From contig CALSNU010000001.1 of assembly GCA_943787795.1 (NCBI GenBank), forward strand, positions 864,001-928,000: DNA of 64,000 nt, written 5' to 3'. How positions within the stretch are numbered: position 1 is the stretch's first letter; every line of letters starts with the position of its first letter. Below are positions 1,013 through 36,649 of the stretch, piece after piece. Position numbers and translations under genes: made by a program. The stretch is from an uncultured bacterium. Its GTDB lineage: Bacteria > Planctomycetota > UBA1135 > GCA-002686595. The notes beneath the pieces are model-generated. The model was not told the DNA's origin and did no database searches. It was given only the letters and a program-made list of their open reading frames with translations.

Positions 1013-3428
1013 TCACTGGAACGTGACCGCGACCGCGTCCGTGAAGTTCGAGTTCAGCGGCGGGACGTCTCGGTGCCAGAGCTGGAAGTGCCATGTCTCG
1101 CCCGCCTGGACGGTGACGGCGCCGGTGGGCTGAGGCATGGCGGAGAGGTCCACGGCCCCGATCATGGTGCCGGTCGTGCCCGCGGAGAGGACGCCGCCGC
1201 CCACGCCGCGGCCGATGCTTCCGAGCACGCAGAGGGTCCCGGCGCTCCCCGGGACGGGGGAGAGGACCCCCGAGGTCGTCGAGGCGAGGAAGTAGCCCAG
1301 GGAACCCTGGGGGAGGTCGCGCGCGCTGACCTTGAAGTCGTTCGTGGCCACGTCGACGCTGCCGAGGATGGAGACCGCGCCGGGGACGCCCGTGGAGTTC
1401 GGGACCGCAGGGGCGCAGTAGGTGCTGCCGATCGCCTCGCAGCGGTCGACGATGCCGTTGCTATCGAGGTCCACGGTGGCGCCGAAGTTGCCGGCGTCGC
1501 AGGCGTTGCCGCTCCAGAAGAGCTGCGCCAGGTCATGGGCCTCTTCACCGATCTCCTGGCCCATCTGCCGGCCGGGGAGGTCGTCCGCGGGGGGGTGGAT
1601 GCCGCCCCAGATGCGTGAGAGGGAGCACTGGTCGGAGGCGTCGTAGTAGGACGCCCACTGCAGCCGCACGTCGACGCTGGGGCCCTGTTCGAAGACGAGG
1701 AACTGGTCCTGGGGGCAGACGTACTCGCCGAGCCCGTCGGGGAAGTAAGGCGAGCCGGTGAGGCGGTCCATCATCACCGCGGCGGCGCGGCTGTAGGTGC
1801 TGTGGCCGGAGACGTAGCCGGCGAAGGGCGGCGTCACGAACGACGGTCGCTGATAGGGCCACCAGTTCTCCGCAAGGATCCAGCCGACGCCCGCCTGGTC
1901 CACGAGGGGGTCGGTGATGTACTCGGGGCCGCGCCACGCGAGCACGGCGATCTTGCCCTCCTCCCCGGCGAGGTTCTCGTGGCGTTGGCCTGTCGCCGTC
2001 GTGGCGGCGGTCACCACCTCGACGTAGCCGGGGTGCAGGTTGATCCCGTCGGGGTGGTAGCTCGGCTGCTGGGGGTCCGAGCGCTGTCCGAGGCCCGCCA
2101 GGTAGCGCAGGGCGCTGACGGGACGCGGGTAGTCGTACCAGCCCTTCACGCCCCAGGCGGAGATGGCGGCGTCTTGCATGGCCCCGCCCATGGCGAGGTA
2201 GGTCTTCACGCACCACTCGAGGTCGTTGAGCACGGGGCCGGAGCCGCCCAGCTGCTTGACGAAGGAGGGGTGATCGGAGACGTCGTTGAGGATCACGAAC
2301 CAGTGTCCCGGGGGCGTCTCGGACTCCGGGGCCGTCGGCCCAGAACTCGGCGAGCACGCGGGAGTAGTCGCCGCGGGGCACCATTTGGGGCGCGTAGGGC
2401 TGACCGGTCACGGGGTTCGATGCGTAGCCGGCGCCCCAGTCCCCGCCGTCAAAGTAGTCGTAGTACTGGTCGGCCTGGGATGCCGCCGCGAGCGGGGCGT
2501 TCCCGACCCCTGCAGGGGAGACGTCCACCATCACGCCGTCCGACGGGTCGAGGTGCGCGGACCATACGCTGACCATCTCGAAGCCGTTTCGATAGCGGTC
2601 CAGCGCGTCGTCAATGAGGGGCGGCGCGCCGGGGTCCTTGAAGACCCAGTAGTTGAAGCCGTCGCGCTGGTAGACCGTGCGGTCAGACTCAGCCAGGGAC
2701 CAGCCGGGCACGATGCCCCACTCGGGCGAGATGAAGTCGGGGTAGCCGAAGGCGATGACGTTGCCGGACTGATCGATGAAGAACTGCAGGCTCAAGGGCT
2801 GCCAGCGATTCGGATCCGTGAACGTCGGGTTCCCGGGGAGCTCGACCACGAGGGCGTCGTTCACCGGGAGGTAGAAGCGGTTGGCGAAGTCGTTCCGCTC
2901 GTTCGAGTTGTCGTTGTCGCCATAGGTGAGCACCGCGGCCGCGATCCGGTTGCCGATGGCGGAGGGGGAGTTGCCGACGGTGGAGGCGTTCGTGGGGTCA
3001 AACCCCTGGGCGATCATGACCGCGTCGTACTGCGGGAGCATGACCGGCGCGCCGGGCGAGTTGGCGAAGCGTGTCTTGAGGATGCGGTACGACGCGTAGC
3101 AGAGGGCCTCGCTGCGCAGCTGATCGACGTTGGGGGCGGTGGTCGCGTGGTCTTCCTGAAAGAGCACAGTGTTCGCCGTGGCGTCGTAGGTCGCCCAGGC
3201 GTCCCACATGGCGATGGAGACGTGGTAGAGGTTTCGGGCGTGAATGGTGGGCCGGGCCAGGTCGTTGCGGATCGACTCGAGCAGCACCTCGTTCCACTCG
3301 CGAGCAGCAGAGGGTTGGCCACCAGCCTGGGGAAGCGCCGGGGCCGGCTGCTGCAGGACGCAGAGGGCCACGGCGGAGTAGAGGGCGCCCGCCAGCATGG
3401 CGCGGAGGTCAGAGACTGCGGAGTTCAT
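1013..3428 (-). CDS. Secreted vanadium-dependent haloperoxidase/PAP2-superfamily protein with recurrent C-terminal domain (frameshift ~2328)
   Basis: ORFs 1545..3428 and 1013..2296 join as 'AEFWADGP|ESETPPGHWF' after removing one C from a C4 run. Motifs KGWYDYPRP, PFAGYVSGHS and SRIWGGIH are present, plus an N-terminal signal peptide. Confidence 0.8.
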
Positions 3429-3945
3429 GTGGGATCGGGGGTCGCGCTGATGCTCGGCGGGGCTGGCCGGGCATGCGGCGTGACGATGCGGCGGTGGGTG
3501 GACGGTCCTGGGGGGGCAGCGGGGCCGGTGAAGCCGAACCGCAGCGGCGCGGCTCCGTTAGGCAGGGGGTGTCTCATCCCTCGCCCTCCCGACTAATAGT
3601 CCGCTACCTCGCCCTATGAAGCGGGGCCATTTGCAGTTCCGCGAGGCCGCGACCCATTGTCGTGCGTCAGATCGGGAGGGGAGGCGAGGTCGGGCCAGAC
3701 ATGGATCGACTGGCGCGCCCCACGGAGCGCCCCACGGAGCGCCGGCACACGGCCCTTGAGGCCAGCTGCTTCTCCGGGCGGGGCCTTCTTTTTTGGCGGT
3801 AAGGGGTAACCCCAGGGAGGCCCCCAGCCTCCTGACCCGGTGCCCACGCCCGTGCTCCCCCTCGCGCTCTCGCGGCTCGTCGCACACGCCTTCGTCGGGT
3901 GGCCTCAGCGCCGAGCGACCCCATCTCTATCACCTCCCCCTCGCC

Positions 3946-5223
3946 GTGCCCCTGCTCTCCCCCGTCCTTCGTCTCGCCATCGCCGCCCTCTGTCTCCTCC
4001 CAGCTTCGAGCCAGCAGCTGCTGAATCGGACCATTGATGTCCAGGGGGTCGCCCGCACCTACCTGCTCTACGTCCCGGCGACGTACTCGCCGGCGGAGCC
4101 GGCGCCGCTGCTCTTCAATTTCCACGGTGGGGCCATGACCTCCCAGGAGATGCTGCAGCTCGCCGATATGCGGCCTCAGGCCGAGGCCGACTCGTTCCTG
4201 CTGGTCTACCCCCAGGGGCTCCCCGAGGCCGGCGGCGGGCCGATCTGGAACAGCGAGGGGCCCTTCTCCAACGGCGTGGACGAGATGGCCTTTGCGGTGG
4301 CCATGATCGATGAGTTGGCGCAGACGTACTCCGTGGACCAGCGCCGCGTCTACGCCTGCGGCTACTCCAACGGCGGCAACCTCGTCTGGGACCTGGCGTG
4401 CCTGCTCAGCGATCGGTTCGCCGCCGTGTCGGCGGTGGCGGGGAACATGTTCGAGTGGACCTACACATCCTGTGCACCCAACTCGCCCACGGCCGTGCTG
4501 GCGATCCACGGGACCGCAGACACGACCTACAACCTCTACAACGGCCTGCCGCCGTTCACGATCTCCCTCCCGCAGGCCAACGCATACTGGGTGGGGATCA
4601 ACGGTGCTCGACCGACCCCGGACGTCTCGCAGATCGGGGCCGCCACGGAGCGGTTCGTCTGGCCCGCGGAGAGTGGTTGCTTCACGGTCGAGCACTACAA
4701 GATCAACGGTGGGGGACATGACTGGCCGGGCGCCTTCGGCTTGGCCTCGGACTTCAGCGCCAACCAGGTCATCTGGGACTACGTCTCTCAGTTCGATCTC
4801 GACGGGCTGATCGCCTGCGGGTCCCCGTCGGCTTACTGCCCGGTGGTCCCCAATTCGTCCGGACTGGGGGCTTCCATGGGTTGGAGCGGCAGCACGAGCG
4901 TCGCCTCCAATGACCTGGTGCTCGAGGTCACGTCCGCTCCGGCGAACACCGTGGGGATCTTCTTCTACGGCCCGGATCAGGTGCAGGTCGGGCTGGGGAA
5001 CGGCATTCGCTGCGTGGGCGGTGCGGTGCGCCGGCTCCCGGTGGTGGGCGCCTCCGCCTCTGGCACCGTCAGTTTTCCCATCGATCTCATGAGCTCCACC
5101 CTTCCCACCGGTGCGATCACGGCGGGGGAGACCTGGAACTTCCAGTACTGGTTCCGTGACGTGCAGGGCTTCCCCTTCCGCTTCAACCTCTCCAACGGCC
5201 TGAGGGTTCCGTTCACTCCCTGA
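3946..5223 (+). CDS. Secreted PHB-depolymerase/LpqC-like alpha/beta hydrolase with recurrent C-terminal domain
   Basis: Motifs 'RTYLLYVP', 'NFHGG', nucleophile elbow GYSNGG, 'IHGTAD' and 'GGGHDWPG'. Signal-like N-terminus begins at the in-frame GTG 3946. Confidence 0.8.
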   Translation: MPLLSPVLRLAIAALCLLPASSQQLLNRTIDVQGVARTYLLYVPATYSPAEPAPLLFNFHGGAMTSQEMLQLADMRPQAEADSFLLVYPQGLPEAGGGPIWNSEGPFSNGVDEMAFAVAMIDELAQTYSVDQRRVYACGYSNGGNLVWDLACLLSDRFAAVSAVAGNMFEWTYTSCAPNSPTAVLAIHGTADTTYNLYNGLPPFTISLPQANAYWVGINGARPTPDVSQIGAATERFVWPAESGCFTVEHYKINGGGHDWPGAFGLASDFSANQVIWDYVSQFDLDGLIACGSPSAYCPVVPNSSGLGASMGWSGSTSVASNDLVLEVTSAPANTVGIFFYGPDQVQVGLGNGIRCVGGAVRRLPVVGASASGTVSFPIDLMSSTLPTGAITAGETWNFQYWFRDVQGFPFRFNLSNGLRVPFTP

Positions 5224-5341
5224 TCGAGGTGGGGCCGTGGGGAGGTGCGGCTGTTGAGGCACGGAAGGCAGGGAGCGCATACTCTGGTGACCCACCGTGC
5301 GCCGCTCTTCAGCGCGCTCGGACCACCTGATCGCACCTCCC

Positions 5342-6124
5342 ATGAATGCACCCAGGACCCACCTCGTGCTCAGCTCGTTCCTCGCGGCAGCCGCGGGCGC
5401 AGCTGCAGTGATCTTCCTGGCGCCCAGTCCGGAGGTGGGCGCCGCCCCGGCCCCGGTGGCACGGGCGCCCCTTGCTGGGGCTTCGGGGAGCGCCCGCTCC
5501 GATGAGCCAGACATCGAGCTGCAGATGCGGGTCGGGAAGCTGGAGGCAGAGCTGGCCGCCATGCGCGCGCAGCTTGGCCGGCTCTCCAGCGCTCGAGTCC
5601 CGATGACCGCGGACGCCGCCTCGGGGGAGGACACGGGTCAGGCGCTGCTGAGCATCGGGTCCGGCGATGAGGCTGTTCTGCTCGAGGAGGTCAGCAAGGC
5701 GATGGCCAAGATCGACGAGCAGAAGGCGGCGGCTGCTCGCGAGGTGGAGATGGAGAGGCGGAAGGGTGAGGAGACCAAGGCCTACGGGGAGTACGAAGAG
5801 GTCCAGGCCAACCTGAAGGAGCGCGTCGCGAAGCTCTCGGAGTCCATGCCCATGGGCAGCGCGGATCGGCGGGAGGTCGAGGGGCTCATGGATCTTCAGG
5901 TCGAGCGTATGCGGGACCTGACCCGCGACTGGGCGAGCGGAGACTTCACCGACGAGGAGGTCGGGGAGCGCTTCATGGCCGAGCGTCGTCAGCACAGGCA
6001 GGCGGCCGTGGCGCTCCTCGGGCAGGAGCGCATCGGGGCCTACAAGAAGTTCATCCAGGACGGCGGCCTCGGCGGCCGCTACTCTTTCTACCTCGCGCCC
6101 TGGGAGAGCTGGGCCGAGGACTAG
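5342..6124 (+). CDS. Hypothetical membrane-anchored coiled-coil protein
   Basis: ATG 5342 lies in ORF 5297..6124. N-terminal hydrophobic helix followed by charged helical segments; resembles 32656..33351. Confidence 0.65.
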   Translation: MNAPRTHLVLSSFLAAAAGAAAVIFLAPSPEVGAAPAPVARAPLAGASGSARSDEPDIELQMRVGKLEAELAAMRAQLGRLSSARVPMTADAASGEDTGQALLSIGSGDEAVLLEEVSKAMAKIDEQKAAAAREVEMERRKGEETKAYGEYEEVQANLKERVAKLSESMPMGSADRREVEGLMDLQVERMRDLTRDWASGDFTDEEVGERFMAERRQHRQAAVALLGQERIGAYKKFIQDGGLGGRYSFYLAPWESWAED

Positions 6125-6160
6125 GTCGAGAGCAAGCCCGGGGGTCATCACGACGGGGGC

Positions 6161-6673: not shown

Positions 6674-6753
6674 TACTCCATGGTCAGCCTCATCCATCTT
6701 TGGGCGGTGAACCAGGCCGCTCTCAGCGCCTGACTCTCCCTCGTCCGGGCGCT

Positions 6754-15819: not shown

Positions 15820-16716
15820 TCAGGCTCGCCACCCGCGCAGGCGGAGGGGCTCGATGAGCATCATGTGCGGGACCGTCAGGGCGGCCAGGCCGATGAAGAT
15901 GATCTGGAGCGTGCGGGCGTCGAGGGTCGCGCCTTCCAGGGCGTAGAACGCCACGGGGATGGCCGCGGCGGTGGCCAGGGTGGGGAGCGCCGACGCGCGG
16001 AGCAGCTGGGCGGGTGCGAGGTCGAAGACGGCGCCGGTGCGGAGCACGTGGCGGGCCGAGTGCAGCACGCAGAAGTAGATGGCGAAGGCCGTGAGGGGCG
16101 GGGCCAGGGTCGCGAGGAGGGCCGTGGCGGCGGCCTCGATGAGCGACGCGGTGGGGACCGCATGGGGGGGCGCCGCGGTCGCGCCGCGGAGGCGTCCCAG
16201 GGCGGCGAGGGCGAGGACGCCGAGGAGGGTGCCGAGGAAGAGGGGGGCCCCGGCGGCGAGCGCGCGGGCGAGGGCCTCGGCCCCCGCGGCCGGGACCAGC
16301 ATGGCGAACAGCTCCGCCAGCTCCTCCCCGTGGAGGAGCGCGGGGAGGACGATGGGGGACGCGCCGTGGAGGCCGCGGAGGAGCGTCGGGGTGCCCGCCT
16401 CCAGGTCACCGCTGAAGTGGAACCCTGAGATGAGGAGGAAGACCGTGAGGGAGGCGGTGGGCGCCAGGATCCAGAGGCCCACAACCGCCGCGGCGATGGC
16501 CACGTAGGCGGCCGTGAACATGACCCAGGTTTCGAGGCGCCGCACCCTCAGGGTGCGCGCCGCGTGGATGACGTCCAGGGCGCCGTGGGGGACCCCGAGG
16601 AGGACCACGGCCGCCGCCACCACGAACAGCTCCAGGGACGGCCAGCCGGTGCGCAGCGCGGCGCTGGCCGCCGTGACGATGAGGGCCAAGGCGCAGAAGA
16701 CGACCGTGTGCCTCAT
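15820..16716 (-). CDS. blh: Beta-carotene 15,15'-dioxygenase (Brp/Blh)
   Basis: Motifs GVPHGALD, HFSGD, LHSARH and LTVPHM; last gene of the rhodopsin operon. Confidence 0.92.
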   Translation of the reverse strand: MRHTVVFCALALIVTAASAALRTGWPSLELFVVAAAVVLLGVPHGALDVIHAARTLRVRRLETWVMFTAAYVAIAAAVVGLWILAPTASLTVFLLISGFHFSGDLEAGTPTLLRGLHGASPIVLPALLHGEELAELFAMLVPAAGAEALARALAAGAPLFLGTLLGVLALAALGRLRGATAAPPHAVPTASLIEAAATALLATLAPPLTAFAIYFCVLHSARHVLRTGAVFDLAPAQLLRASALPTLATAAAIPVAFYALEGATLDARTLQIIFIGLAALTVPHMMLIEPLRLRGWRA

Positions 16717-17864
16717 CCGACCTCCCCCAGGGGGCGCCGCAAGAGGGCGGCCCCGGCCTCACGAAGGAAGGGTCCCGGAGGCAGGGAGCCCACGATCGCG
16801 AGGGCGTCCAGCGGCGAGCCGAGGTCGCTCAGGAACCGGATCACGCGCTCGGTGGAGGCGCGGGCGAAGAGGCCGGCCAGCAGCTCCGGACCGCGCTCGG
16901 GTTCTGCCCGAAGGACCCGCAGGAAGACGGTGTCCATGGCGCGGCGAAGGAGGGGGTCGGGTTGAACGGCGCGCGGGGTGCCGTCCCCGAGGAGGCTCGC
17001 CGCGCAGGTGTCGGCCCAGGCCTGGATACGCTGGAAGGCGTACCCCGTGCTCGGGCGCGCGCCCCCGTGGAACAGGCCGGCCTGGACCCAGGGCCTTGGG
17101 GTGAGGGGGCCGGCGAGCCCCATGGGGAGCGCGCTGTGCTCGGAGCGCCGGACCGAGACAGGGCCGCCTCCCACAAGCCGCGCGGTGGCGCGGTCGAGGT
17201 CTCCACGGAGCTCGGACGCTGCGAGGGCCTGTGGACCGAAGACCGTGGTCTCCACCAGCGCCTCGTGGGCGCTCAGCGGCAGGACGTAGCTGAACTGGAC
17301 GCCCCGGCGATTCGGGTCGTCGAAGTCCATCAGGGTGAGGACCTGGGGGTCGAAGCTGGGGGCCTCGACCGTCACGACCTGCCCCAGGAACGACTGCCAC
17401 AGGAGGCACTCCGGCAGGGGCGTCGGGGGCCGCGTGTCGATGACATGGCGCGCGCGAAAGGTCTCGTGTGCCGTGCGGACCAGCCACCCGTCGCCGTCGG
17501 GCACCGGGTCGCCCGTCACCCTCGCTCCAAGCTGGAGCGAGACGGCCCCGCAGCCCTCGATGCGCTCCTGGACGTGCTCGTAGTAGGGGAGCGCCGTGAG
17601 CATCTGATAGGGGGTCGCGCCGCAGTCGTAGGTCTCGAGGCGCCCACCGCTCCCGACGGCCATCCGGTTCCATGACGCGCTGACCAGGTCCTCGAACCTG
17701 TGGGCGCGGGTCCGCCAGAAGCTCCAGGTGCGATCGTCCTCGTAGCCCTCGCGCCCCTCGAGGACGAGGGTGCGCGGGCTGGAGGTGCCGTGATCGGTCA
17801 GGCGCAGGGCGAGCGCGAGGCCCGCGCAGCCGCCGCCGAGCACGAGCAGGTCCAGCTCACCCAC
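16713..17864 (-). CDS. crtY: Lycopene beta-cyclase
   Basis: Motifs GGGCAGLALA, DRTWSFW, LMDF, FSYVLP and RPSTGYAF; operon context. Confidence 0.9.
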   Translation of the reverse strand: MGELDLLVLGGGCAGLALALRLTDHGTSSPRTLVLEGREGYEDDRTWSFWRTRAHRFEDLVSASWNRMAVGSGGRLETYDCGATPYQMLTALPYYEHVQERIEGCGAVSLQLGARVTGDPVPDGDGWLVRTAHETFRARHVIDTRPPTPLPECLLWQSFLGQVVTVEAPSFDPQVLTLMDFDDPNRRGVQFSYVLPLSAHEALVETTVFGPQALAASELRGDLDRATARLVGGGPVSVRRSEHSALPMGLAGPLTPRPWVQAGLFHGGARPSTGYAFQRIQAWADTCAASLLGDGTPRAVQPDPLLRRAMDTVFLRVLRAEPERGPELLAGLFARASTERVIRFLSDLGSPLDALAIVGSLPPGPFLREAGAALLRRPLGEVG

Positions 17865-18795
17865 GCTGCGCCTCGGCCTGGTTGGCGCCGCCGAGCCCAG
17901 CGAGGTGGCGGTGCAGGGTGGGGGAGTGGTGGTCGGGGCGGCACCAGAATGCGGGCCGCGGCACCGAGGAGAGGAGGGCGGTGGCCGTCGTGAGCGCCTT
18001 GGCGGCGGCGGGGACGTACGCCCTCTCGCTCAGGCGGTCGCCGAGGGCCAGGGCTCGCGGGCCGATGGCTCGGTAGTTCTGCGCCGCCACGAGCATGGCC
18101 GCGCGCGCTCGCAGCGGGAGGAAGGGGAGGCCGCGGATGCCGCTTCGGTAGTAGCCCTCCGCGCGCTCGAGGAGCGCACGGCGGCCGTCGACGAGCGACC
18201 GATGTTGCGCAGGGGTCGGCGCGAGGATGGCCTCGGGCGAGAGCTCGCCCACCAGGGAGGCTGGGATGTAGCGGCGGCCGATCAGGGCGTCCTCGTGGAT
18301 GTCTCGCGCGATGTTCGTCAGCTGCATGCCGATCCCGAGGTCGATGGCGTGGGGCAGCGCGGCCGCCTCCGGGCGGTCCAGCGCGAAGCACATCATCACG
18401 CCCACGGTCCCCGCGACACGGTAGCAATAACGGATCAACGCCCGCTCGTCGGCGAGCTGCACCTCTCCGAGGTCCGAGAGGACACCGTCGATCAACGCGA
18501 GCGCCGCCTCGACCCCGGGGCCCGCGCCCCCGAGGATCCCCAGGACCGCGGCGAGCATCGGGTCCGATGAGGTGCCCCGCTCCAGGTCGGAGCGGATCGC
18601 GGCCAGGTCCTGAGCCGCCTGGACGGGATCCTCGGACTCGTCCGCGACGTCGTCGAGGTATCGGCAGAAGGCGTAGAGCCGGGTCGAGCGCTCGGCGTGG
18701 CGGCTCCCCAGGAAGCGGCGGGCCCAGGCAAAGGTCTTGCCGTTCTCCCGGAGCACGCGGTCGGCGTCCTCGAGGGTCCCCGCCTGCTGGATCAT
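17857..18795 (-). CDS. crtB: Phytoene synthase
   Basis: Motifs YAFCRYLDDVAD, YCYRVAGTVG and QLTNIARDI.ED. Confidence 0.95.
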   Translation of the reverse strand: MIQQAGTLEDADRVLRENGKTFAWARRFLGSRHAERSTRLYAFCRYLDDVADESEDPVQAAQDLAAIRSDLERGTSSDPMLAAVLGILGGAGPGVEAALALIDGVLSDLGEVQLADERALIRYCYRVAGTVGVMMCFALDRPEAAALPHAIDLGIGMQLTNIARDIHEDALIGRRYIPASLVGELSPEAILAPTPAQHRSLVDGRRALLERAEGYYRSGIRGLPFLPLRARAAMLVAAQNYRAIGPRALALGDRLSERAYVPAAAKALTTATALLSSVPRPAFWCRPDHHSPTLHRHLAGLGGANQAEAQRG

Positions 18796-20267
18796 CCGAC
18801 CGTTTCGGCCGGCACGAGCTTGTCCACCACCTTGGCGGAGCAGAGGACCCCCGGCATGCCCGCACCGGGGTGCGTCCCGGCGCCGACGAGGTAGAGGTTG
18901 CGGATGCCCTCTGCCCGGTTATGGAAGCGGAACCAGGCGGACTGACGGAACAGCGGGGCGACGGAGAACCCCGCGCCGTGGACGCTGAGGTAGTCGGTCT
19001 TGAAGTCCTCGGGCGTCATGTAGAAGTCTGCGGTGATGGTCTCCTGCAGCCCGGGGAGCATGGTCTCGTCCAGCGACTTGACGATGCGGTCACGCAGGCG
19101 CGGCCCCTCGACCGACCAGTCCACGTCGCCCTGCAGATTCGGGACGGGGCACAGCACGTAGAAGCTGTCGCAGCCCTCCGGCGCGAAGCTCGGGTCGGTG
19201 GCGGTGGGGCGGTGGACGTAGAGCGAGAAGTCCTCTGCGAGCACCTTCTTGTTGAAGATGTCGTTGAGCAGTTCCTTGTAGCGCTTGCCGAACCACACGG
19301 TGTGGTGCGCCACGTCGGGGTACTGCTTGGTGGTCCCGAAGTAGAGGACGAACAGGCCCATGGAGTAATGCGCCGAGGCGAGCTTGGCCTTCGAGGCGAG
19401 GCTACGTTCCGGGCGGGGGATCATCTCGCCGTGGAGATAGGCGGCGTCCGCGTTGGAGACCGTGACCTCTGCTCGCCGCTCCTCGCCGCCTTCAAGCACG
19501 ACACCCTTCGCGTCGCCCTTCTCGACCAGGACGCGCTCGACGGTCTGGCCCATCTCGATGCGAATGCCCTGACGCCGCATCAGGTCCTCGAGCGCCTTCA
19601 CGATGGCGCCCGTGCCTCCCATGGCGAAGTGGATGCCCCACTCCCGCTCCACGTGGTGGATGAGGCTATAGATGCTCGTGGTGTCGAACGGGTTCCCGCC
19701 GACCAGCAGCGGCTGGATCGAGAAGGCCCACTGGAGCTTGGGGTGAGAGAGGTACTTCGAGACGAACTGCCAAACGGTGAGGTGACTCCGCAGCTCCATG
19801 AGCTTTGGGATTTGCTTCACCATGGTCCCGAACCGGTGGAAGGGCTCGTCGGACAGCTCGGTGAAGCCCACGTCGAAGATGCGCTTCGAGTGCTCCAGGA
19901 GCCGCTCGTACCCCTCGACGTCCTTCGGCTCGATGCGGGCGATCTCGGCCTTGGTGTCCTCGATGGAGCCGCCGTAGTCGAAGTGGGTGCCGTCGGGGTA
20001 CTGGAAGCGGTACCAGGGGGTGAGGGGGACCAGCGTCACATGATCCGAGAAGCGCTCGCCAAACAGCTCGAAGAGCTCCTCGAAGAGGAACGGCGCCGTG
20101 ACCACTGTCGGGCCTGCGTCATGTTTGAAGCCGTCCCGCTCGAACGTTCGGGCGCGGCCACCGAGGCGCTCACCCCGCTCGAGCAGGGTGACGTCGTAGC
20201 CTTTGGCTCGGAGCCGAAGAGCGGCGGCGATGCCACCGAGGCCGCCGCCGCAGACAATGGCGCTCAT
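18792..20267 (-). CDS. crtI: Phytoene desaturase
   Basis: Motifs GGGLGG, DAGPTVVT, LLVGGNPF and VGAGTHPGAG.PGV. Confidence 0.95.
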   Translation of the reverse strand: MSAIVCGGGLGGIAAALRLRAKGYDVTLLERGERLGGRARTFERDGFKHDAGPTVVTAPFLFEELFELFGERFSDHVTLVPLTPWYRFQYPDGTHFDYGGSIEDTKAEIARIEPKDVEGYERLLEHSKRIFDVGFTELSDEPFHRFGTMVKQIPKLMELRSHLTVWQFVSKYLSHPKLQWAFSIQPLLVGGNPFDTTSIYSLIHHVEREWGIHFAMGGTGAIVKALEDLMRRQGIRIEMGQTVERVLVEKGDAKGVVLEGGEERRAEVTVSNADAAYLHGEMIPRPERSLASKAKLASAHYSMGLFVLYFGTTKQYPDVAHHTVWFGKRYKELLNDIFNKKVLAEDFSLYVHRPTATDPSFAPEGCDSFYVLCPVPNLQGDVDWSVEGPRLRDRIVKSLDETMLPGLQETITADFYMTPEDFKTDYLSVHGAGFSVAPLFRQSAWFRFHNRAEGIRNLYLVGAGTHPGAGMPGVLCSAKVVDKLVPAETVG

Positions 20268-20273
20268 CGTGGA

Positions 20274-21170
20274 TCAGATGCGCGCTGCGAAGCGGCGCGC
20301 GAGCTCTTGGAGGGGGGCGCCTGCACCGTGGGGGAGGTCCTCGGCCAGCGCGATCGATTCGTGGAGCAGCTCGAGGGCGCGCTCACGGGCGAGGGCGATG
20401 CCGCCGGTGCCAGAGCGATCGTTTGCGAGCATGACATAGTTGAGGCGCCCAGCGCCGCTCGAGGCGGCGAGGTCGCTCTCGAGGTCTTCGAGGTCGTCCG
20501 CGATCTGGTAGCCGATGGCGAGCGCGTGCGCGGCCCGTCTGGCCTGCGGCACGGCGTGCTCGCAGCCCGCATAGAGCAGCGCGAGCTCGATGGGGAGGGC
20601 GAACAGGACGCCGGACTTCTCCGCGGCGACCTGCTCGTACTCGCGGAGGGTTGTGCCCGTGTGGGCGCTGACCGCCAGGTCTGCGGTCTGCCCGTGGATC
20701 AGGAGGGAGGTGCGAAGGTGGGTGTGCGCCACCAGCGGACCGATGCGCGCTCCGTCTGAGAGAGTTGAGAGGGCGCCGTAGGCCGCGGAGAGCATGAGCG
20801 CGCCAGTGCAGAGAGCCACCTCGGCGCCGAACTTGACCCAGACGGCCGGTGTTCCTCTGCGCTCGGTGTCCTTGTCCTGGAGGTCGTCGAAAACGAGCGA
20901 CGAGTTGTGGAGAAGCTCCACGGTGGCCGCGAGGGCCAGGTTGTCTGCGTCGGGGATGCCGAGGGCGGATCCAGCTTGCAGGGCGAGCTCTGCGCGGGCG
21001 CGCTTTCCACCTGACTCCAGGTGGTAGCACGCCGCGCGCAGGGCCGCCGAACCCGCGCCGCGTCGGGCCCCGCCGGACGACTCCACGAAGGCCACCAGAG
21101 CTTGATCAGAGAGTCCGAGTCGCGTTGCCGCGTGGTCGGTCGCTTCGTCCCTTCGCTGTGTGGTGGTCAT
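20274..21170 (-). CDS. crtE: Geranylgeranyl diphosphate synthase
   Basis: Motifs GGKRAR, ELLHNSSLVFDDLQD...RRG and YQIADD. Confidence 0.9.
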   Translation of the reverse strand: MTTTQRRDEATDHAATRLGLSDQALVAFVESSGGARRGAGSAALRAACYHLESGGKRARAELALQAGSALGIPDADNLALAATVELLHNSSLVFDDLQDKDTERRGTPAVWVKFGAEVALCTGALMLSAAYGALSTLSDGARIGPLVAHTHLRTSLLIHGQTADLAVSAHTGTTLREYEQVAAEKSGVLFALPIELALLYAGCEHAVPQARRAAHALAIGYQIADDLEDLESDLAASSGAGRLNYVMLANDRSGTGGIALARERALELLHESIALAEDLPHGAGAPLQELARRFAARI

Positions 21171-21226
21171 GCCTTGAAGTCGTCGTGATGCGGTGCCTTG
21201 ACGGTCGGTACAGGTCAGTAGGGCGA

Positions 21227-21991
21227 TCAGGCGTCGTCCTTGTCGCTCTCGGCCACGGCCACCGTCCAGATGATCACACCGAAGGCGATCTTGTTCACCA
21301 CATCGGCGATGTTGTAGACGATGTTCAGCATGTCATCGGAGCTACCCGGCTCGGCGCCGGTGAGGTAGCCGAGGAAGTAGCCGACCGGGTAGATCGCCCA
21401 GCCGATGGTCACGATGTTCCGCATCAGCTTGAACGCCGCCTGCACCGAGGCGGGCGCGCTCTCGGCGCTGATCTTGCTGGCTTCGCCGGCGAAGATCTCC
21501 TTGAGGATGTAGAGCCAGCCCAGCATGCCGATGATGAAGCCCGGCCACACTGCGATCAGCCCAGCCTCGCCCAGGTAGCCGCCGAGGAGCATCACGAACG
21601 TGCCGATCATGAGGCGCCAGAAGACGCCGCCGGGCACCTTCGTGATCGCCGCAAGGATGAGATAGAACTCAACCATCAGCAGCGGCACTGTGATGAGCCA
21701 GTCGATGTACCTGAAGACGGTGGGCGCTGCCTTGTCGGCGACCCACATGTCCCGCATGTAGAAGTAGTGGACGGCCGCGACGAGCGTCACCATGCCGGAC
21801 ACGGTGAGCGAGGTCTTCCACTTGCCCTTGACCCTCTGGATCTCAAGGAAGAAGAAGGCCGTCGCTGCGATGAGAGCCATCGAAATGGCGAAGAAGGAGA
21901 TACCGACGTAGTCGGTCGGCTCCAACTTCAGAACTTCGGGCGCGAGGGCAGCTACGGGGCTGCTTAGATTTGAGAGAATGGTGACGAGCAT
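21227..21991 (-). CDS. Proteorhodopsin (DTE proton pump, green-tuned Leu105)
   Basis: RYIDWLITVPLLMVEF gives D97/T101/L105/E108; helix B His in AVHY; retinal-binding Lys in ADVVNKIAFG. Confidence 0.96.
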   Translation of the reverse strand: MLVTILSNLSSPVAALAPEVLKLEPTDYVGISFFAISMALIAATAFFFLEIQRVKGKWKTSLTVSGMVTLVAAVHYFYMRDMWVADKAAPTVFRYIDWLITVPLLMVEFYLILAAITKVPGGVFWRLMIGTFVMLLGGYLGEAGLIAVWPGFIIGMLGWLYILKEIFAGEASKISAESAPASVQAAFKLMRNIVTIGWAIYPVGYFLGYLTGAEPGSSDDMLNIVYNIADVVNKIAFGVIIWTVAVAESDKDDA

Positions 21992-25817: not shown

Positions 25818-27086
25818 CTACTGGAACTGGACCTCGAGGCCGTCCGTGAAGTTGGACGTCGCCGACCCGCCGACCGCGTCGCGGTGCCAGCAGGTGAAGT
25901 TCCACGTCTCTCCGGCCTGAACGGAGACCAGGCCCGTCGGCTGGGGGGTGGAGTTGAGGTCCAGGGGCAGCGAGAACTCGCCCGCGGTGCCACTGCTCAG
26001 GATCTGTCCGGCCCCGACGTAGCGGCCGATCGAGCCGCTGAGGCAGAGGTTGCCCGAGCTACCGCCGGGGTTCTGGGTGAACCCCTGCGCCTGGCTGGTC
26101 AGGAAGAAGCCGAAGGCATTCAGGGGGAGCGACGAGCTGGTGAGGATCACGTTGTTGTCGGCCACGATGTCGCTGCCGAGCGCCGAGATCGCGCCGGCGT
26201 TGCCCGTGGAGTTCACCGCCGCGGTGCAGAAGTTCGTGCCGATCGGCGTGAGGAGCGTCTCCACCACGAGGTTGTCGTAGATCGCAAAGTTGGTCGGGCC
26301 GGAGAGGGAGCTGAAGCGGTCGAAGAGCCCGAGGCTCACGAGCCCGTCAAAGGACCCGGAGAAGTCGCTCTGGTAGGTGAGCTGTCCGTCGAAGCTGTAG
26401 GTGATCACGCCGGCGAAGTTGTCGACCTCGATCTCCACGGTCGTCCAGATGTTGCCCGGCGACCCCGAGATGGTGGACGGCGGCGAGGGGAAGAGGGCCT
26501 GGTAGAAGCTCCCTGACGCGTTCGCGCCGTGCCCCATGTAGCTGTAGTGCGAGTTCGGCATGGTGGCGCACTCGGGGTCAGTGGGGAAGGCGTTGTTGCA
26601 GTCCCTGAACCAGCTGTAGTCGGTGACCGATCCGCCGTCGCCCGTGAAGGCGATGTAGGAGCCGGAGCCCGCGGAGGGCGAGAGGATGGTGTTGCTGGAG
26701 ACCCCGTCCCCCGCGACGCCGATCTGGGCGTACTCGGTCGTACCGGACGAGCCGACGAAGTTCATCCAGACGTCGACGGTGAGCTTGTAGCGCTCGGCGG
26801 AGACCGGTGTGTTGTTGTAGACGGTCCAGGCGTCCGACGAGCCAGCGGTATCGTTGACCGTGAGCTTGAGCCCACCGACGTCGCCGGCGGCTGAGCGAGG
26901 CGCGAGCGGAACTCCGGCGGCGACGTAGTCAAAGGCGAACGTCTGGGAACCGTCCGGAGTGCCGTCGTCGACCAGGGTGTAGTTGGCGGAGGAGTTGGTC
27001 TCGAAGCTGTCGCTCAGGACGACCGATTGAGCCATGGAGGGGCCGACGATGGCGGCCGCGCTGATGGTGGAGAGCAGGATTCGCAT
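25818..27086 (-). CDS. Secreted beta-rich (concanavalin-like?) protein with recurrent C-terminal domain
   Basis: ATG 27086 'MRILLSTISAAAIVGPSMAQ'; C-terminus 'FCTAAVNSTG...AGETWNFTCWHRD...SNFTDGLEVQFQ'. Confidence 0.75.
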   Translation of the reverse strand: MRILLSTISAAAIVGPSMAQSVVLSDSFETNSSANYTLVDDGTPDGSQTFAFDYVAAGVPLAPRSAAGDVGGLKLTVNDTAGSSDAWTVYNNTPVSAERYKLTVDVWMNFVGSSGTTEYAQIGVAGDGVSSNTILSPSAGSGSYIAFTGDGGSVTDYSWFRDCNNAFPTDPECATMPNSHYSYMGHGANASGSFYQALFPSPPSTISGSPGNIWTTVEIEVDNFAGVITYSFDGQLTYQSDFSGSFDGLVSLGLFDRFSSLSGPTNFAIYDNLVVETLLTPIGTNFCTAAVNSTGNAGAISALGSDIVADNNVILTSSSLPLNAFGFFLTSQAQGFTQNPGGSSGNLCLSGSIGRYVGAGQILSSGTAGEFSLPLDLNSTPQPTGLVSVQAGETWNFTCWHRDAVGGSATSNFTDGLEVQFQ

Positions 27087-28951: not shown

Positions 28952-28965
28952 CGCTCTCGACCCGC

Positions 28966-29004: not shown

Positions 29005-29073
29005 GAACGGCGACGGTCGGCTTCCCGGCTCCCTGTCTGGTGGCGCCGCGTGCGCGCGCCTAGCCTTGGAGGC

Positions 29074-30045: not shown

Positions 30046-30158
30046 CGGCGGCCGGAGGCGGTCCGGGAGAGTTCTGGCTGATGGGGGGTAACCCGCCGCG
30101 GCGCCGGGTCCTCGCCCCTTGAACGGCCCGCAGCTGGGCCCGCAAGCGAGAGCCTTCG

Positions 30159-30779: not shown

Positions 30780-32495
30780 GCGATCAGGACAACAGCGGCA
30801 GGAGGCCCAGTGATCCAAGCGGCAGCGAACAGAGCGGCAGCGAACAGAGCGGCAGTGAAGAGAGCGCAGTGATCAGAGCGGCAGCAACCAGCACCCCGAT
30901 GCCCTCTGGCTTGACTACCTCGAGGGAGACCTGAGCGAGTCCGGCATGGAGGCGCTGCGTCAGTCCTTCGAGTCTGACCCGGGCGCGCGGGCGGGCCGCG
31001 TCGAGACCCTGCGCCTCCACCGCGAGCTGGGGCTGGCGCTCTCGGGGACGGCACGGGAGCGCGCGGCTTCGTGGCGGCGACCATGGACCGCTTGCCTGCG
31101 GAGGTCGGCGGTCGGCGGCCGCTGCTCGCGCGAGCCGTGGCGATCGGGGCGGCGCTGGCCGCGACGCTGCTGGGCGCCCTCCTGATCGGCGGCTCAGGGG
31201 CAGAGCCGGCGCCGGTGCTCCGGGTGCTCGAGGCCGCAGGAGCCGTGGAGTGGGTCGCTGGCGGCGGACAGGCGGAGCCCCTCCCTGCGCCAGGGTCGGC
31301 GCTCCCCGGCGGCGTCCTCGCCCTCCGCGGCCCGGATGCCTGGGCGGAGCTCGCGTTCAACGATGGGTCGACCATCACCCTGACGGGGATCGCGAGGGCC
31401 ACGATCTCCGACGAGGGGCAGAAGGTCATCGCCCTGGACGGGGGCCGCTTGCTCGCGGAGGTCGCGCCGCAGGGGCAGCAACCTATGCTGGTGTTCACGG
31501 CGGCGGCGGAGATCGCAGTCCTCGGCACCCGCTTCAGGGTCCAGGCCTCCGAGGAGCGAGCGACCCTCGACGTGACCCAGGGGCGAGTTGAGATGCGCCG
31601 AAATGTGGACGGCCAGCGGGTGGAGGTCGCCGCCGGCGAGTTCGCGGTGGCCACCCCCTTCGCTGGGGACGCCTTCCACCCGCGGGTGAGGCCGGAACCC
31701 ACGGGGAGCTGGAGCGCCAGCCTCAGGGACGACCCGACCCAGGGCCGGTTCGTGATGGACCTCGAGGCGCTGAAGGCGGAGCTCTCCAGGGCCGTGGAGC
31801 GCGGCGAGCTGACCGAGGCGGAGGCACTGGAGCGCTTCCTCGCGGCGGACGGGGGCCTCGAGGCGGTGGCGCTCAGGAAGAAGGCCGCGCATTGGAGCAA
31901 GCGGGCGTTGAAGCTCGGGGGCAAGCGGGACCTGGAGGGTTACCCAAAGGGTTCCTCGAAGGGCTCCTCAGAGAGCTCCGCAGAGGGCTCTCCTGGGGGC
32001 TCTCCTGGGGGCTCTCCTGGGGGCTCCCCGGAAGGCGCGGCCGAGAATGAGGCCAAGAAGGGCGGTGCTTGGGGGAGCCTGGTCGCCGCCGGGCCGGTCT
32101 CCGCGGGCGGGGACAGCGCGCCGGTGCTCCTGACGAACGACTCCAGGGTCCTGGTCACCGGGTGGGTCGCGCGTCCCACGAGGCTGACGATCGGGCTGAC
32201 GCTGGCCCAAGCGGACCGCAGGTACGCTGGCAAGGTGAGCTTCACCTCCGACGTCTTGCCTGGCGGCGCCTTCTTCGAGCTGGATCTGCTCGGCGCGGAC
32301 TTCGCGCCCCTCGCGCGGTCCAAGGGCGGACTCCGTGCCAGGGACAAGGGGCCATCCACCGTCGCTGGCGGCACCTTCAGGGGCCAAGCTTCAGGGAGCA
32401 TCATCGAGGACTGGTGGTGCGTCGGTCACGCCCTCGAGTCCGGCCTGAAGATCCGCCAGGTGGAGATTCAGCCCGGCGAAAGTACGACCCGGTGA
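30776..32495 (+). CDS. FecR-domain anti-sigma factor, frameshifts ~30890 and ~31060
   Basis: GTG overlaps the sigma stop (GTGA). Segments 'DYLEGDL', a TM helix, and FecR motifs 'FNDGSTITL', 'VLGTRF' and 'VTQGRV'. Confidence 0.8.
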
Positions 32496-32655
32496 AAGTG
32501 CGACCCGGTGAAGGTACAGCCCGTGCCGATCCAACCTGGCTCAGTCCAGCCCGATCCCGTCCATCCCAGCTCACCCGCCAACCGTCCGATCTCGCCACCA
32601 TCTGCTGACTTCTCCTGACCTCCTTGAGCCGACCTCTTGGCCCATCGACCACACC

Positions 32656-33351
32656 ATGAAACTCCCCATCCTCCTGTCTGCCGCCGCGCTCACCATCAGT
32701 GGGCTCGCCCTTCTCACCAACCTCAACTCCAGCCCCGAAGGGGCCCGCGTTGAGCCCACCGTCAAGAACGACACGGGGCTCAACCAGGTCAGGGATGAGA
32801 TCGCGGCGCTGCGCGGCGAGCTGAATGACCTGTCTGGACGCCTTGAGGTGCTGGCGAGTCGCCCGGTCGCGCCGTCTCGGATACCCGCAGGCGACCTCGT
32901 GGAGCAGTCGGACATCGACGCGCTCAGGGCCGAGCTCCTGGCGGAGCTCACGACGAGCGGGTCGAGCCCCGGAGGCAAGGCTGCAGCCGCCGAGGGTCTC
33001 AAGAACGACGTCGCGGCGGCCCTTGAGGAGGTCCGCGCCGCCGAGCGGGCGGCCAGGGCCGAGGCCAAGGGAGCCGCGGCCACGGCGAAGCTCGACACCC
33101 AGATGCCGGAGTACCAGCAGCAGCTCGGCCTCACGAACGCCCAGACGGATGGGCTCCGGGGCGTGATCGAGGCCCGCAACGAGCGGGTCGCGGAGATGAT
33201 GCGGCTGTGGGAGTCGGGCGACCGCGCGGCCGCGGGCGAGCTCAAGGGCAACGAGGCCGAGACGTATCAGGCCGAGCTGCAGGGCGTGCTCAACCAGCAG
33301 CAGGTCGAGCAGTTCAACGCCATGGGCGGCGGTCGCCGCGGCGGTAAGTAG
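32656..33351 (+). CDS. Hypothetical exported coiled-coil protein with LTxxQ-like helical C-terminus
   Basis: Signal/TM segment; 'LGLTNAQ' and 'LNQQQVEQF'. Confidence 0.7.
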   Translation: MKLPILLSAAALTISGLALLTNLNSSPEGARVEPTVKNDTGLNQVRDEIAALRGELNDLSGRLEVLASRPVAPSRIPAGDLVEQSDIDALRAELLAELTTSGSSPGGKAAAAEGLKNDVAAALEEVRAAERAARAEAKGAAATAKLDTQMPEYQQQLGLTNAQTDGLRGVIEARNERVAEMMRLWESGDRAAAGELKGNEAETYQAELQGVLNQQQVEQFNAMGGGRRGGK

Positions 33352-33393
33352 GGAGGCGAGGCCAAGGGAGGGGCGGTGCCCTATGGTGGGCCC

Positions 33394-34377
33394 ATGACCC
33401 CCAAGCTCGCCGCCCTGCTCCTCGCCCTCGCCGGATCGCCGCTGCTCCTCTCCCTCCACGGGCCCGCGGCCCCGGCGCCGGATCCTCAGGAGGGGCGGCA
33501 GAAGCTCCACGTCTTCCTGCTCGCGGGGCAGTCCAACATGGAGGGCCAGGCCGTGGTCGATCTCGATCACGAGGAGCACTACAACGGCGGCCGAGGCACC
33601 CTCGCCAAGCTCCTGGAGGCCCCCGAGTTCAAGGAGCGCTGGGGCTGGGTCCGAGGGGATGACGGGGCCTGGAGCGAGCGCAGTGACGTCGGGGTCTGGT
33701 ATCGCACCCCCCACGAGGAGAAGAAGGGGCCGCTGTCCATCGGCTACGCCGTCTACGGCGGGCGCCATCACTTCGGGCCGGAGCTCGCGCTCGGCAAGGT
33801 GCTGGGGGATCGGTTCGAGGGACCCGTGCTCCTGGTCAAGGCGTGCTGGGGCGGGAAGAGCCTGCACGTGGACTTCCGTCCGCCGTCCGCCGGCGGGGAG
33901 GTGGGGCCCTACTACGAGCGCATCTTCGAGGAGCTCGATGCGGCGCTCCAAGGCGTCGGCGAGGCCTTCCCCGAGTGGAAGGACCTCGAGCCCCAGCTGG
34001 AGGGGTTGTTCTGGTTCCAGGGTTGGAACGACGGGTGCGATGGCGAGGCCACGCGGGACTACGCGGGCAACCTGGAGCAGCTGGTAGGGGACGTCCGCGA
34101 GCGCCTCGGGGACCGCAAGCTGCCGGTGGTCGTGGGGGAGACCGGCAACATGAACAACCCCGCCCTGCACAAGGCTCAGGCCGCGGGGACGAGAGCCGCG
34201 CGACGGCGAGGGCCGGCGGCCTTCGTGGAGACCCGGGCGTTCCTGCGTGAGGCGAAGGACTCTCCGAACACAGGTCACGGCCATCACTGGTTTGGCAACG
34301 CGGAGAGCTACCTGCTGGTGGGCGATGCCATGGGCGCAGCCATGGTCGAGCTCCTCCCCGGGCCGAGTCGCCGTTGA
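33394..34377 (+). CDS. Sialate O-acetylesterase (SASA/DUF303) family protein
   Basis: Motifs LAGQSNMEG, FGPEL, WFQGWND and HHWFGNAESY. Confidence 0.88.
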   Translation: MTPKLAALLLALAGSPLLLSLHGPAAPAPDPQEGRQKLHVFLLAGQSNMEGQAVVDLDHEEHYNGGRGTLAKLLEAPEFKERWGWVRGDDGAWSERSDVGVWYRTPHEEKKGPLSIGYAVYGGRHHFGPELALGKVLGDRFEGPVLLVKACWGGKSLHVDFRPPSAGGEVGPYYERIFEELDAALQGVGEAFPEWKDLEPQLEGLFWFQGWNDGCDGEATRDYAGNLEQLVGDVRERLGDRKLPVVVGETGNMNNPALHKAQAAGTRAARRRGPAAFVETRAFLREAKDSPNTGHGHHWFGNAESYLLVGDAMGAAMVELLPGPSRR

Positions 34378-34418
34378 CAGGTCCGGCGCTCGGGGCCTGA
34401 TCGAGGTACCCTTCGACC

Positions 34419-34871
34419 ATGGCGGACGGTTTCGAAGGCGATGGGTGGAGCATGCTCGGCCCCGAGGGCTGGGACATGGCCTCCGAGGACGGAGCGGTCA
34501 TGTTCACCTCGGAGGGCGGGGGGTGCCTGCAGATGCAGGGCCACCGCAAGGAGGACGGGGACGTGAACGACGACGACCTTGACGAGGTCGCGAATGACCA
34601 CCTGGAGGCCGGCGCGCCCGTTCGGGACGTACGCCTCGGTGACTTCGTCGGCTTCGAGGTCGACTACGACGCCGGGGAGCTGAGCTGCAGGGAGTGGTTC
34701 CTGCGCAGCGGGCCGGTGCTGCTCTTCGGGACCTTGGTTCGCCCGGTCGAGCGGCGAGGCGCTGAGGATGAGGCCGTGGAGCTGGCCCTGGTCTCGCTGC
34801 GTGTCGACGCCGCGGACGCTGCTCGAGAGGGGGCCCCGCCGAGGCGTCATCGGGCTCGCCGCCGCCGCTGA
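34419..34871 (+). CDS. Hypothetical acidic protein
   Basis: Composition looks coding; TACCCT lies 6 nt before the ATG. Confidence 0.55.
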   Translation: MADGFEGDGWSMLGPEGWDMASEDGAVMFTSEGGGCLQMQGHRKEDGDVNDDDLDEVANDHLEAGAPVRDVRLGDFVGFEVDYDAGELSCREWFLRSGPVLLFGTLVRPVERRGAEDEAVELALVSLRVDAADAAREGAPPRRHRARRRR

Positions 34872-35006
34872 GTGGCGCTGCGTCGCAGTGCTATCCGGCT
34901 TTGTGTCAGATGGTCGCGGGAGGGTCCCGATCTGGATCATCCCCTGCGGGGAAGCCGCATGGCTCGATCCTGGGGGCGGCTGCAGAACGGGGGTACTATT
35001 TGAGGT

Positions 35007-36649
35007 ATGCGCTTCCCCATCGCCTCCATCTCGCTCGCCTTGATCGCTCCCGCTGTCGCCGCGGCGCAGTCACTACCTGCCCCGCCCTTCCCGCCAGAGA
35101 ACCCGATCACAGAGCCCAAGCGTATCCTCGGGAAGGCTCTCTTTTGGGACGAGCAGCTTTCCTCCGATAACACGATCGCCTGCGGAACGTGTCACATCCC
35201 GAGCGCGGGCGGCTCCGATCCGCGCGTGGACATGGGGAGCCGACACCCCGGACTCAACGGTGTCTACGGTGACTCTGACGACCGCTTCGCCTCGGCCGGT
35301 GTTCGGCTCGCGGACGCCAGCGGCAACCTGACGCCTGACGCCTCCTTCGGGTTCTCCCCCCAGGTGACCGGTCGGCGCTCGCCGTCGCCCATCGGCGCCG
35401 CGTTCTTCGACGAGCTCTTCTGGGACGGCCGCGCCACCTCGACGTTCATCAACCCCGAGACCGGTCAGGTCAGCATCCCGAGCGGTGGCGCGCTCGAGTC
35501 CCAGGCGGTGGGCCCGATCCTCTCCTTCGTGGAGATGGCCGATGAGGGCCGCACCTGGGCCGACGTGAGAGCCAAGCTCGAGCAGGTCCAGCCCCTGGCG
35601 CTCGCTGCCAACCTGAACCCCGACCTCGTCGCGGCGCTGGCGGTCGATCCCTCCTATCCAGAGCTGTTCGAGAGCGCCTTCGGGGACCCGGCGATCACCG
35701 CCGAGCGGATCGGCTTCGCGCTCGCCACCTACCAGCGGACGCTGCACCCCGACCAGACCCCCTGGGACCTCTACCAGAGCGGCAGTGCCCGGCTCGCTCA
35801 ACTCCACGGAGCTCCAGCGGCCTCAGCCAGTTCATGTCGGGGAGCCTGCGCTGCTCCCAGTGCCACACCCCGCCCCTCTTCTCGGACGGCACCTACCGCA
35901 ACATCGGCATCCGGGACATCGCGGAGGACAACGGGCGCCAGGGCGTCACGGGGAACTACTCGGACCGCGGCAAGTTCAAGGTGCCCACCCTTCGGAACGC
36001 CGACCTGCGCACGCGCTACTTCCACAACGGTGACCCCAACTGGGCCAACCTGTTCCTGGCGGTCTTCATCTACAACCAGGGCGCGGGCCCGTTCCTCGAC
36101 AACAAGGACCCGCTGGTCAACAACGTGTTCTTCTCGCCGGGCACCGCCTCCACCATCGAGGCGTTCATTCGCGGTGGGCTGACCGACCCCCGCGTGGCGG
36201 CGGAGCTTCCCCCCTTCGACCGCCCGCTGCTGCGGAGCGAGATGGGGCCGGCGGCCACCCTCGTGGGCTCCGGCCGGGCGGGGTCGGGCGGAAGTGAGCC
36301 CCAGATGCTCGCCTTCTCGCCCCCCAAGGTGGGCAACGGTCAGTTCCGCGTGGCGGTGACCGAGGCCCTCGGCGGGGCCCCCGCGATCCTCGCGCTCCGA
36401 GACCAAGCCCCCGGGGCTGGCGGCGGTGGCTCCCTCGGAGGCGTCATCAACCGCTCCCCGAGCCGCCTTGCTTTCCGGACCCAGCTCTCGGGCGTCGGCG
36501 TTGGCCAGGGCTTCGGCACCTGGAACACGGCCATCCCCGCGGACCCGGCCCTGGTTGGGAGTCAGTTCTGGATGCAGTGGAACGTCCGTGACGCCGCCGC
36601 GGTCGGCGGCGTGGCCCGCTCGAAGTGGGCCGAGGTCACCGTCTACTGA
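35007..36649 (+). CDS. Di-haem cytochrome c peroxidase (CCP/MauG family), frameshifts ~35785-35820
   Basis: Motifs LGKALFWD, CGTCH, LFWDGRA, CSQCH and FKVPTLRN, plus an extra C-terminal beta domain. Confidence 0.85.

Follow-up and report, generated by a model that had tools for sequence, protein, structure and literature searches.

A domain of 130-140 residues ends several otherwise unrelated secreted proteins encoded in a 64,000-nucleotide stretch of genomic DNA from an uncultured planctomycete (GenBank assembly GCA_943787795.1, contig CALSNU010000001.1, positions 864,001 to 928,000), hereafter called the window. In this study, sequence comparisons show that the domain forms a large uncatalogued superfamily with two exchangeable types, A and B, and that by sequence it is not the C-terminal domain (CTD) of type IX secretion systems (T9SS). 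The pattern in which A and B replace each other, the swap of terminal modules in one slot of a secreted esterase and the tests of candidate machinery are new. It is very probable that the domain acts as a shared envelope address, whether as an export tag, an anchor or a cleaved T9SS-like signal. Among these readings we lean, tentatively and on sequence grounds, towards a folded address tag that would direct proteins across the outer membrane.

Copies, types and host lineages of the domain

A hidden Markov model (HMM) was built from the three type A copies in the window and iterated on the 61,688 stop-to-stop open reading frames (ORFs) of the genome from which the window comes (G000; 4.7 Mb, 85% complete), which belongs to the 'Saltatorellus' clade. 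The envelopes of these three copies (1016-1432 on the reverse, 4822-5217 on the forward and 25821-26243 on the reverse strand; E 4e-57 to 6e-41) end 0-1 residue short of the stop and agree with the places where an earlier note, made from the letters of the window alone, had reported one domain on three unrelated proteins. The copies are 33-51% identical in pairs and their cargo parts are unrelated to each other. The model converges on 104 matches at E 1e-5, some of them pieces of frameshifted genes. There is one match per ORF, and 102 of the 104 end at most two residues from the stop, which bears out the expectation of many copies, nearly all terminal and single. In a chance control with the same HMMs on the 61,688 reversed ORFs, the best E values were 0.1-0.26. 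An unbiased all-against-all comparison of gene tails in the same genome returned the type A family as the largest cluster, with 96 members, and the 101 tagged genes make up about 3% of the 3,495 called. The type A profile also matched 18,725 library representatives (50% identity clustering) at E 0.001. Terminal position recurs in these other samples, in 149 of the 150 best representatives and in 91 of 94 stop-bounded matches from 80 GTDB loci.

The domain had been described as strictly C-terminal. This holds for nearly all copies, but five proteins bear it straight after the signal peptide (G000 C6:243720, P0128, and one each in L131, L136 and L138). The parts that follow N-terminal copies are, as labelled by eye, CxxCH cytochrome-like (G000 C6:243720), formylglycine-enzyme-like or unknown. 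Because these copies exist, an obligatory cleaved tail is disfavoured; neither a free C-terminus nor removal by cleavage can be obligatory.

Conservation is strong and follows the consensus first drawn from the three window copies. In 100 aligned type A copies, 11 columns are more than 90% conserved, the two Cys are retained in 94% and 97%, and in the motif G-x-T-W-x-F-Q-x-W-x-R-D the Arg is kept in 99% and the Asp in 98%. The reported lack of a transmembrane tail was also confirmed, as no tail holds a hydrophobic 19-residue segment above the maximum Kyte-Doolittle value of 1.65.

A di-haem peroxidase in the window ends in what the earlier note had taken for a divergent version of the domain. 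This tail is unmatched by the type A HMM (E 1.3) and lacks both Cys; it seeded a second profile, type B, with about seven members in G000. HHalign aligned 63 type A sequences with 43 of type B, the latter taken from some 30 genomes, over 125 columns at 96% probability (E 4e-9), and gave 21% with only six type B sequences. The type B HMM weakly matches 12 type A ORFs of G000. When homologues were sought with the type B profile, only 10 proteins came back, which says little. By these sequence comparisons, type B is a real but distant sister form of type A. Confident models of both types (pLDDT 97.8 for A and 88.9 for B) are all-beta, and both are predicted to be immunoglobulin (Ig)-like sandwiches; they share structural matches to Ig, Fn3 and macroglobulin (MG) domains at Z 7-9, with none standing out. 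Among individual copies, the tail of an Amidase_3 protein (L235, G000:C2:379231-380343) is matched by both profiles and is an intermediate form. Two genes (G000:C4:661665-663524 and C4:709578-711443) have identical type B-like tails and differing N-termini.

By sequence, no catalogued family corresponds to the domain. None of the 63 type A or 43 type B members matches Pfam or NCBIfam at E 0.1, including PF18962, TIGR04183 and TIGR04131; TIGR04183 itself gives a single weak match in 4 of 31 genomes, which in G000 falls in an untagged protein. Searches of PDB sequences gave no match, the ESM Atlas returned only unnamed clusters, commonest in Planctomycetota, and Foldseek found nothing at E 0.001, the rows for ester-bond repeats reaching a TM score of about 0.35. 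No description of the domain was found in the literature consulted, including the accessible parts of 10.1101/817700, PMC11032199 and 10.64898/2026.10.26.761892; subscription papers and bioRxiv supplements lay mostly outside this coverage.

The proposed restriction to one lineage agrees with genome searches, all confined to Planctomycetota. Type A occurs in 18 of 18 near relatives, with 71 to at least 132 matches each, and other families gave one weak match in 3 of 12 genomes. In a wider draw of 33 family genomes, 28 carry 40 matches or more and the other five have 0-3, while a single match was found in 3 of 27 genomes outside the family. Type B is present in each of those five, at 20-106 matches. 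In 81 genomes sampled across the phylum it is all-or-none: 17 are positive (6 to at least 52 matches), and in 64 it was not found. When one secretin from 30 of these genomes was placed on a quick tree, a well-supported group contained 16 of the 17 positives together with four negatives. Mostly, then, a genome carries one type, and we infer a shared function, which would make A and B interchangeable versions of one tag. Close copies in named records come from Planctomycetota; in the cultured strain Saltatorellus ferox Poly30 the identity is 60-66%. Type A is also present, at 59-67% identity, in records titled Paracoccaceae bacterium and Klebsiella sp. (L083, L087, L103 and L120), which are likelier to be mislabelled or mixed bins.

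Cargo and the esterase slot

As the earlier note had supposed, the domain is carried by proteins with signal peptides. By a crude heuristic, 83 of 101 tagged genes pass, against 916 of 2,324 other genes, and inspection by eye assigned many of the failures to wrong starts or fragments. The 101 tagged proteins have no Tat motif and no segment above a hydropathy of 1.9 beyond residue 45, and three show a lipobox pattern. Several have D-x-N-x-N-G repeats immediately ahead of the domain. The cargo is diverse: 92 cargo parts fall into 46 BLAST clusters, and Pfam matches, found in 36 of the 60 tagged ORFs scanned (out of 104), include 10 FG-GAP, 7 GBD_T9SS_assoc, the peptidases M12, M14, M43, S8 and trypsin, GH16 and lectins, kinds that resemble those on T9SS cargo. 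Composition sets these proteins apart. In 76 of 90 cargo parts Lys and Arg together stay below 6%; among the other soluble, signal-peptide-like proteins this is true of 32 of 564 (medians 3.7% and 10.1%). Tagged proteins are a distinct class because their cargo is poor in Lys and Arg in this way; a low content of the two residues is a mark of extracellular proteins.

The strongest sequence argument for a localisation role comes from the secreted esterase of the window. Its catalytic part, searched alone, has 411 homologues, and among the best 120 of these the terminal module is PF18962 in 79 (counted by eye), type A in 10, type B in 11 and dockerin-like in 2, one of which matches PF00404. Tail kinds sort by clade in a quick tree of 46 homologues. 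Which terminal module the enzyme bears thus follows its host lineage. The earlier note had proposed an export or surface-attachment tag; a sorting role is backed by this swap with T9SS CTDs on the same esterase. Because dockerins are anchors, the swap does not separate export from attachment.

The domain could instead be a substrate-binding or stabilising accessory, similar to a carbohydrate-binding module (CBM), or a periplasmic retention module, in either case spread by domain shuffling and read by no machine. Shuffling does occur, as tails on unrelated cargo reach 72% identity (the median is 40% on unrelated and 44% on related cargo), and the fold is a generic beta-sandwich, with CBM56 and cellulosomal enzymes at Z 7.0 among structural rows that are tied and none of them distinctive. 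We nevertheless consider this the least probable explanation. The cargo, which includes proteases, peroxidases and phosphatase-like, lectin-like and adhesin-like proteins, has no common substrate; the terminal position is almost fixed; and all 33 family genomes retain either type A or type B in tens of copies.

Candidate machinery and readings of the domain

If the domain is an export tag, the proteins would cross the inner membrane by Sec through their N-terminal signal peptides, as the sequence heuristics suggest, and would fold in the periplasm, where the two conserved Cys of type A may form a disulfide. A conserved face of the folded domain, not a free C-terminal peptide, would then be recognised, since N-terminal copies and single-copy use are both seen. 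Passage through a secretin would follow, with GspC-like PDZ proteins as candidate readers. For export we favour such a type II-like machine as the route, though this particular machine is a proposal that we regard as rather doubtful.

Six secretins are encoded in G000: one in a type II secretion system (T2SS) cluster, one in a type IV pilus-like locus, one in a Tad-like locus (assigned by eye), one standing alone, and two that surround ExbB-ExbD-ExbD and TPR genes. Matches to GspD, E, F, G and H are clustered at G000 C3:436-444 kb. The type IV pilus-like locus (G000:C4:4739-38900; L233, L247 and L151), which is also T2SS-like, contains two genes for transmembrane-plus-PDZ proteins (C4:23780-25821), called GspC-like from architecture only, and two Big_5 lipoproteins of about 1,100 residues. 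The order, with the GspC-like gene first and the two lipoprotein genes next, recurs in five distant tag-positive genomes and in the tag-negative genome G136 (loci L301-L306). The Big_5 lipoprotein family has almost no annotation.

The earlier note had suggested profiling co-occurring machinery, and four candidates were followed across the set of 81 genomes used above (17 type B-positive, 64 negative). A GspD homologue is present in 17 of 17 tag-bearing genomes, and a type II route is therefore available wherever needed; with 62 of 81 genomes positive overall, GspD was set aside as not specific. The GspC-like PDZ family was likewise set aside (19 of 81 genomes); it is found in 33 of 33 family genomes regardless of tag type. 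A matching of two GspC paralogues to the two tag types was rejected, as two paralogues occur in no more than 3 of the 33 other family genomes, which belong to the same genus. The Big_5 lipoproteins, found in 5, 6 and 12 of 81 genomes by two single queries and one profile, were also set aside as not specific. The twin secretin cluster (L146, G000:C5:96451-109817), in which two TPR-bearing secretins of about 880 residues flank ExbB, two ExbD and two TPR-like genes, proved unspecific at 72 of 81 genomes (17 of 17 positives, 55 of 64 negatives). Literature on an Akkermansia link of the twin secretins yielded nothing relevant.

Several points weigh against an export tag that a type II-like machine would read. 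None of the candidate machines follows the tag exactly: GspD homologues occur also in 45 of 64 tag-negative genomes, the GspC-like PDZ family in 12 of 17 positives and 7 of 64 negatives, and the tag-negative genome G136 has this family beside the same large lipoproteins. Tag-bearing genomes largely belong to one clade, so that co-occurrence is confounded by descent, and inspection of five secretin regions showed no tag gene next to the secretion genes. Some cargo is possibly periplasmic (haem-c peroxidases, an Amidase_3 protein), and some esterase homologues are tailless, several of them possibly cut at contig ends. In the Vibrio VesB work, as far as the accessible text of PMC12369372 goes, only one substrate needed the PDZ domain. 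Finally, an anchor agrees with the sequence evidence nearly as well as an export tag does.

As a non-covalent surface anchor, similar to dockerins or S-layer homology modules, the domain would stay on cargo that leaves by a general route and would dock it on an outer-membrane glycan, lipid or scaffold protein, for which the large Big_5 lipoproteins of the clade are candidates. This is a serious possibility, although not the one to which we lean. The copies directly after the signal peptide and the dockerin-like tails in the same slot of two esterase homologues speak for it, and the Big_5 lipoprotein profile matches 11 of 17 tag-positive genomes against 1 of 64 negative ones. Strong conservation of the domain also favours an anchor, in that T9SS CTDs are described as having very low identities and no obvious motifs (PMC11285876, accessible part). 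On the other hand, no tandem copies were found in the 104 G000 matches or in the 150 best library representatives. Surface anchors often repeat in tandem. Cohesin (PF00963) was detected in none of five genomes, G000 included, with a positive control query, and the tails gave no match to the dockerin family PF00404. The Big_5 lipoproteins occur also in the tag-negative genomes G113 and G136.

A T9SS-like system, either independent or diverged beyond recognition, would read the tag with a dedicated beta-barrel translocon and would cleave it by a sortase-like protease that attaches the cargo to the surface. The same cargo families and the same slot as those of T9SS CTDs are consistent with it, as is the Ig-like fold, for which residues 1054-1156 of PorU match type B (Z 7.2, rmsd 3.5, 96 aligned). 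Directly after the A-x-A motif of the predicted signal cleavage site, Gln is found in 55 of 90 cargo proteins against 100 of 564 controls, and Gln at this place recalls secreted proteins of Bacteroidota. We judge such a system unlikely all the same. The PorU match is no better than those to unrelated Ig folds; other T9SS CTD structures are not among the listed structural rows, which excludes nothing. PorV was found in 0 of 5 genomes with a positive control query, and SprA (0 of 5) and PorU (0 of 1) were not found either, although their control queries likewise gave no match; together these searches point to absence, G000 being 85% complete. A crude barrel scan of this incomplete genome showed no obvious very large unknown barrel, and the N-terminal copies cannot be cleaved-off tails.

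In its widest form, the export reading would mean that planctomycetes of the 'Saltatorellus' clade and of deep lineages close to it possess a general export pathway of their own, a T9SS analogue made of one family of Ig-like tags (types A and B) on 10 to more than 100 proteins per genome, a dedicated secretin machine, a PDZ GspC-like receptor and large Ig lipoproteins. We put this forward as speculative and somewhat doubtful. If true, this would be the first type II-like system known to us to have a folded signal that is transferable and used genome-wide. If the domain is an export tag, it would permit a direct test of how type II-like machines choose their substrates, a long-open question. 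If the domain is an anchor, it would be a novel means by which enzymes are displayed at the surface of a diderm cell. The domain predicts the secretome of a lineage that is widespread, hardly cultured and unusual in its cell biology, and Saltatorellus ferox Poly30 provides a cultured strain that carries it.

Genes of the window and known systems compared

The four genes that bear the domain in the window are listed in Table 1. As a correction to the earlier note, the haloperoxidase and peroxidase genes are each split by a frameshift in the assembly. Because the frames are continuous in relatives (827 and 867 residues for the haloperoxidase in two of them, 548-593 residues for the peroxidase in three), the breaks are probably assembly errors. 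The esterase scores 149.8 bits against NCBIfam NF050058, for which the cut-off is 150, and its start was picked by a codon model.

Table 1. Genes with the terminal domain in the window, and the domain copies themselves
Positions	Strand	Feature	Evidence
1013..3428	-	Vanadium haloperoxidase-like gene (DUF6851 + VCPO_2nd), signal-peptide-like start, frameshift-split near 2300	Pfam
1013..1432	-	Two-Cys terminal domain (type A) of the haloperoxidase-like protein, including the stop codon	HMM E 8.7e-49, no residue between domain and stop
3946..5223	+	Secreted alpha/beta-hydrolase (PHB depolymerase-like esterase) gene	Pfam PF10503; NCBIfam NF050058
4822..5223	+	Type A terminal domain of the esterase	HMM E 6e-41
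25818..27086	-	422-residue beta-rich protein, signal-peptide-like start, no Pfam or NCBIfam match	Profile scans
25818..26243	-	Type A terminal domain of the beta-rich protein; copy folded (pLDDT 97.8, all-beta)	HMM E 3.5e-57
35007..36649	+	MauG-type di-haem peroxidase gene, signal-peptide-like start, frameshift-split near 35800	Both pieces match Pfam CCP_MauG
36254..36649	+	Type B terminal domain (no Cys) of the peroxidase	Type B HMM E 1.9e-37; model pLDDT 88.9

Two other parts of the window were labelled by eye. Positions 15820-21991 (reverse strand) look like a rhodopsin gene with genes for carotenoid and retinal synthesis, and at 36792-38497 (reverse strand) an aldolase-like gene is followed by three short microcompartment vertex-like genes. 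From 57941-63752 (forward strand) onward, a PilM-like gene, a gene for a 904-residue TPR protein and prepilin-motif genes open a further pilus-like cluster, which includes a 1,744-residue protein just beyond the window edge. Elsewhere in the genome (L147, G000:C1:1244607-1246939), the gene for a DHOR peroxidase with a dockerin-looking tail immediately precedes that of a tagged protein whose N-terminal part appears cohesin-like by eye; a cohesin-dockerin reading of this pair was dropped, with neither label backed by Pfam.

Among known systems, PEP-CTERM with exosortase and GlyGly-CTERM with rhombosortase share with the planctomycete domain the many-to-one use of a C-terminal tag on low-complexity exported proteins. 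The tails described here differ in having no short motif, transmembrane helix or basic tail, and exosortase was not found in G000 and is present in 3 of 4 relatives, at only 1-2 copies. Dockerin (PF00404) and cohesin form a second parallel, with a terminal module on unrelated secreted enzymes that takes the esterase slot in two homologues. The dockerin domain is small, helical and binds calcium, whereas the planctomycete domain is all-beta, and cohesin was not found in the five genomes searched.

The T9SS CTD of type A (Por_Secre_tail, PF18962 / TIGR04183) in Bacteroidota is likewise a single Ig-like beta-sandwich that ends many unrelated Sec-exported proteins, and it shares cargo families and the slot on homologous esterases with the planctomycete domain. 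It differs in length, with 70-100 residues according to the accessible part of PMC11285876 against 130-140 here. There is no sequence match between the two, and the planctomycete domain has two conserved Cys in type A, strong motifs and occasional N-terminal use. The Ig-fold of Vibrio cholerae VesB is a graftable T2SS signal that depends on the PDZ domain of EpsC (PMC12369372, accessible part). There an Ig-like domain lies behind the catalytic domain and can carry a foreign protein through the T2SS, according to the same text; the Fn3 domain of PelI with OutC-PDZ is a similar case. The planctomycete domain resembles the VesB signal in its predicted fold type; no homology to VesB was seen, though no test aimed at it was made. 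Its family is present on about 100 proteins, unlike the VesB signal, which serves one substrate. As in the VesB system, T2SS genes and GspC-like PDZ proteins are encoded in the same genome, G000.

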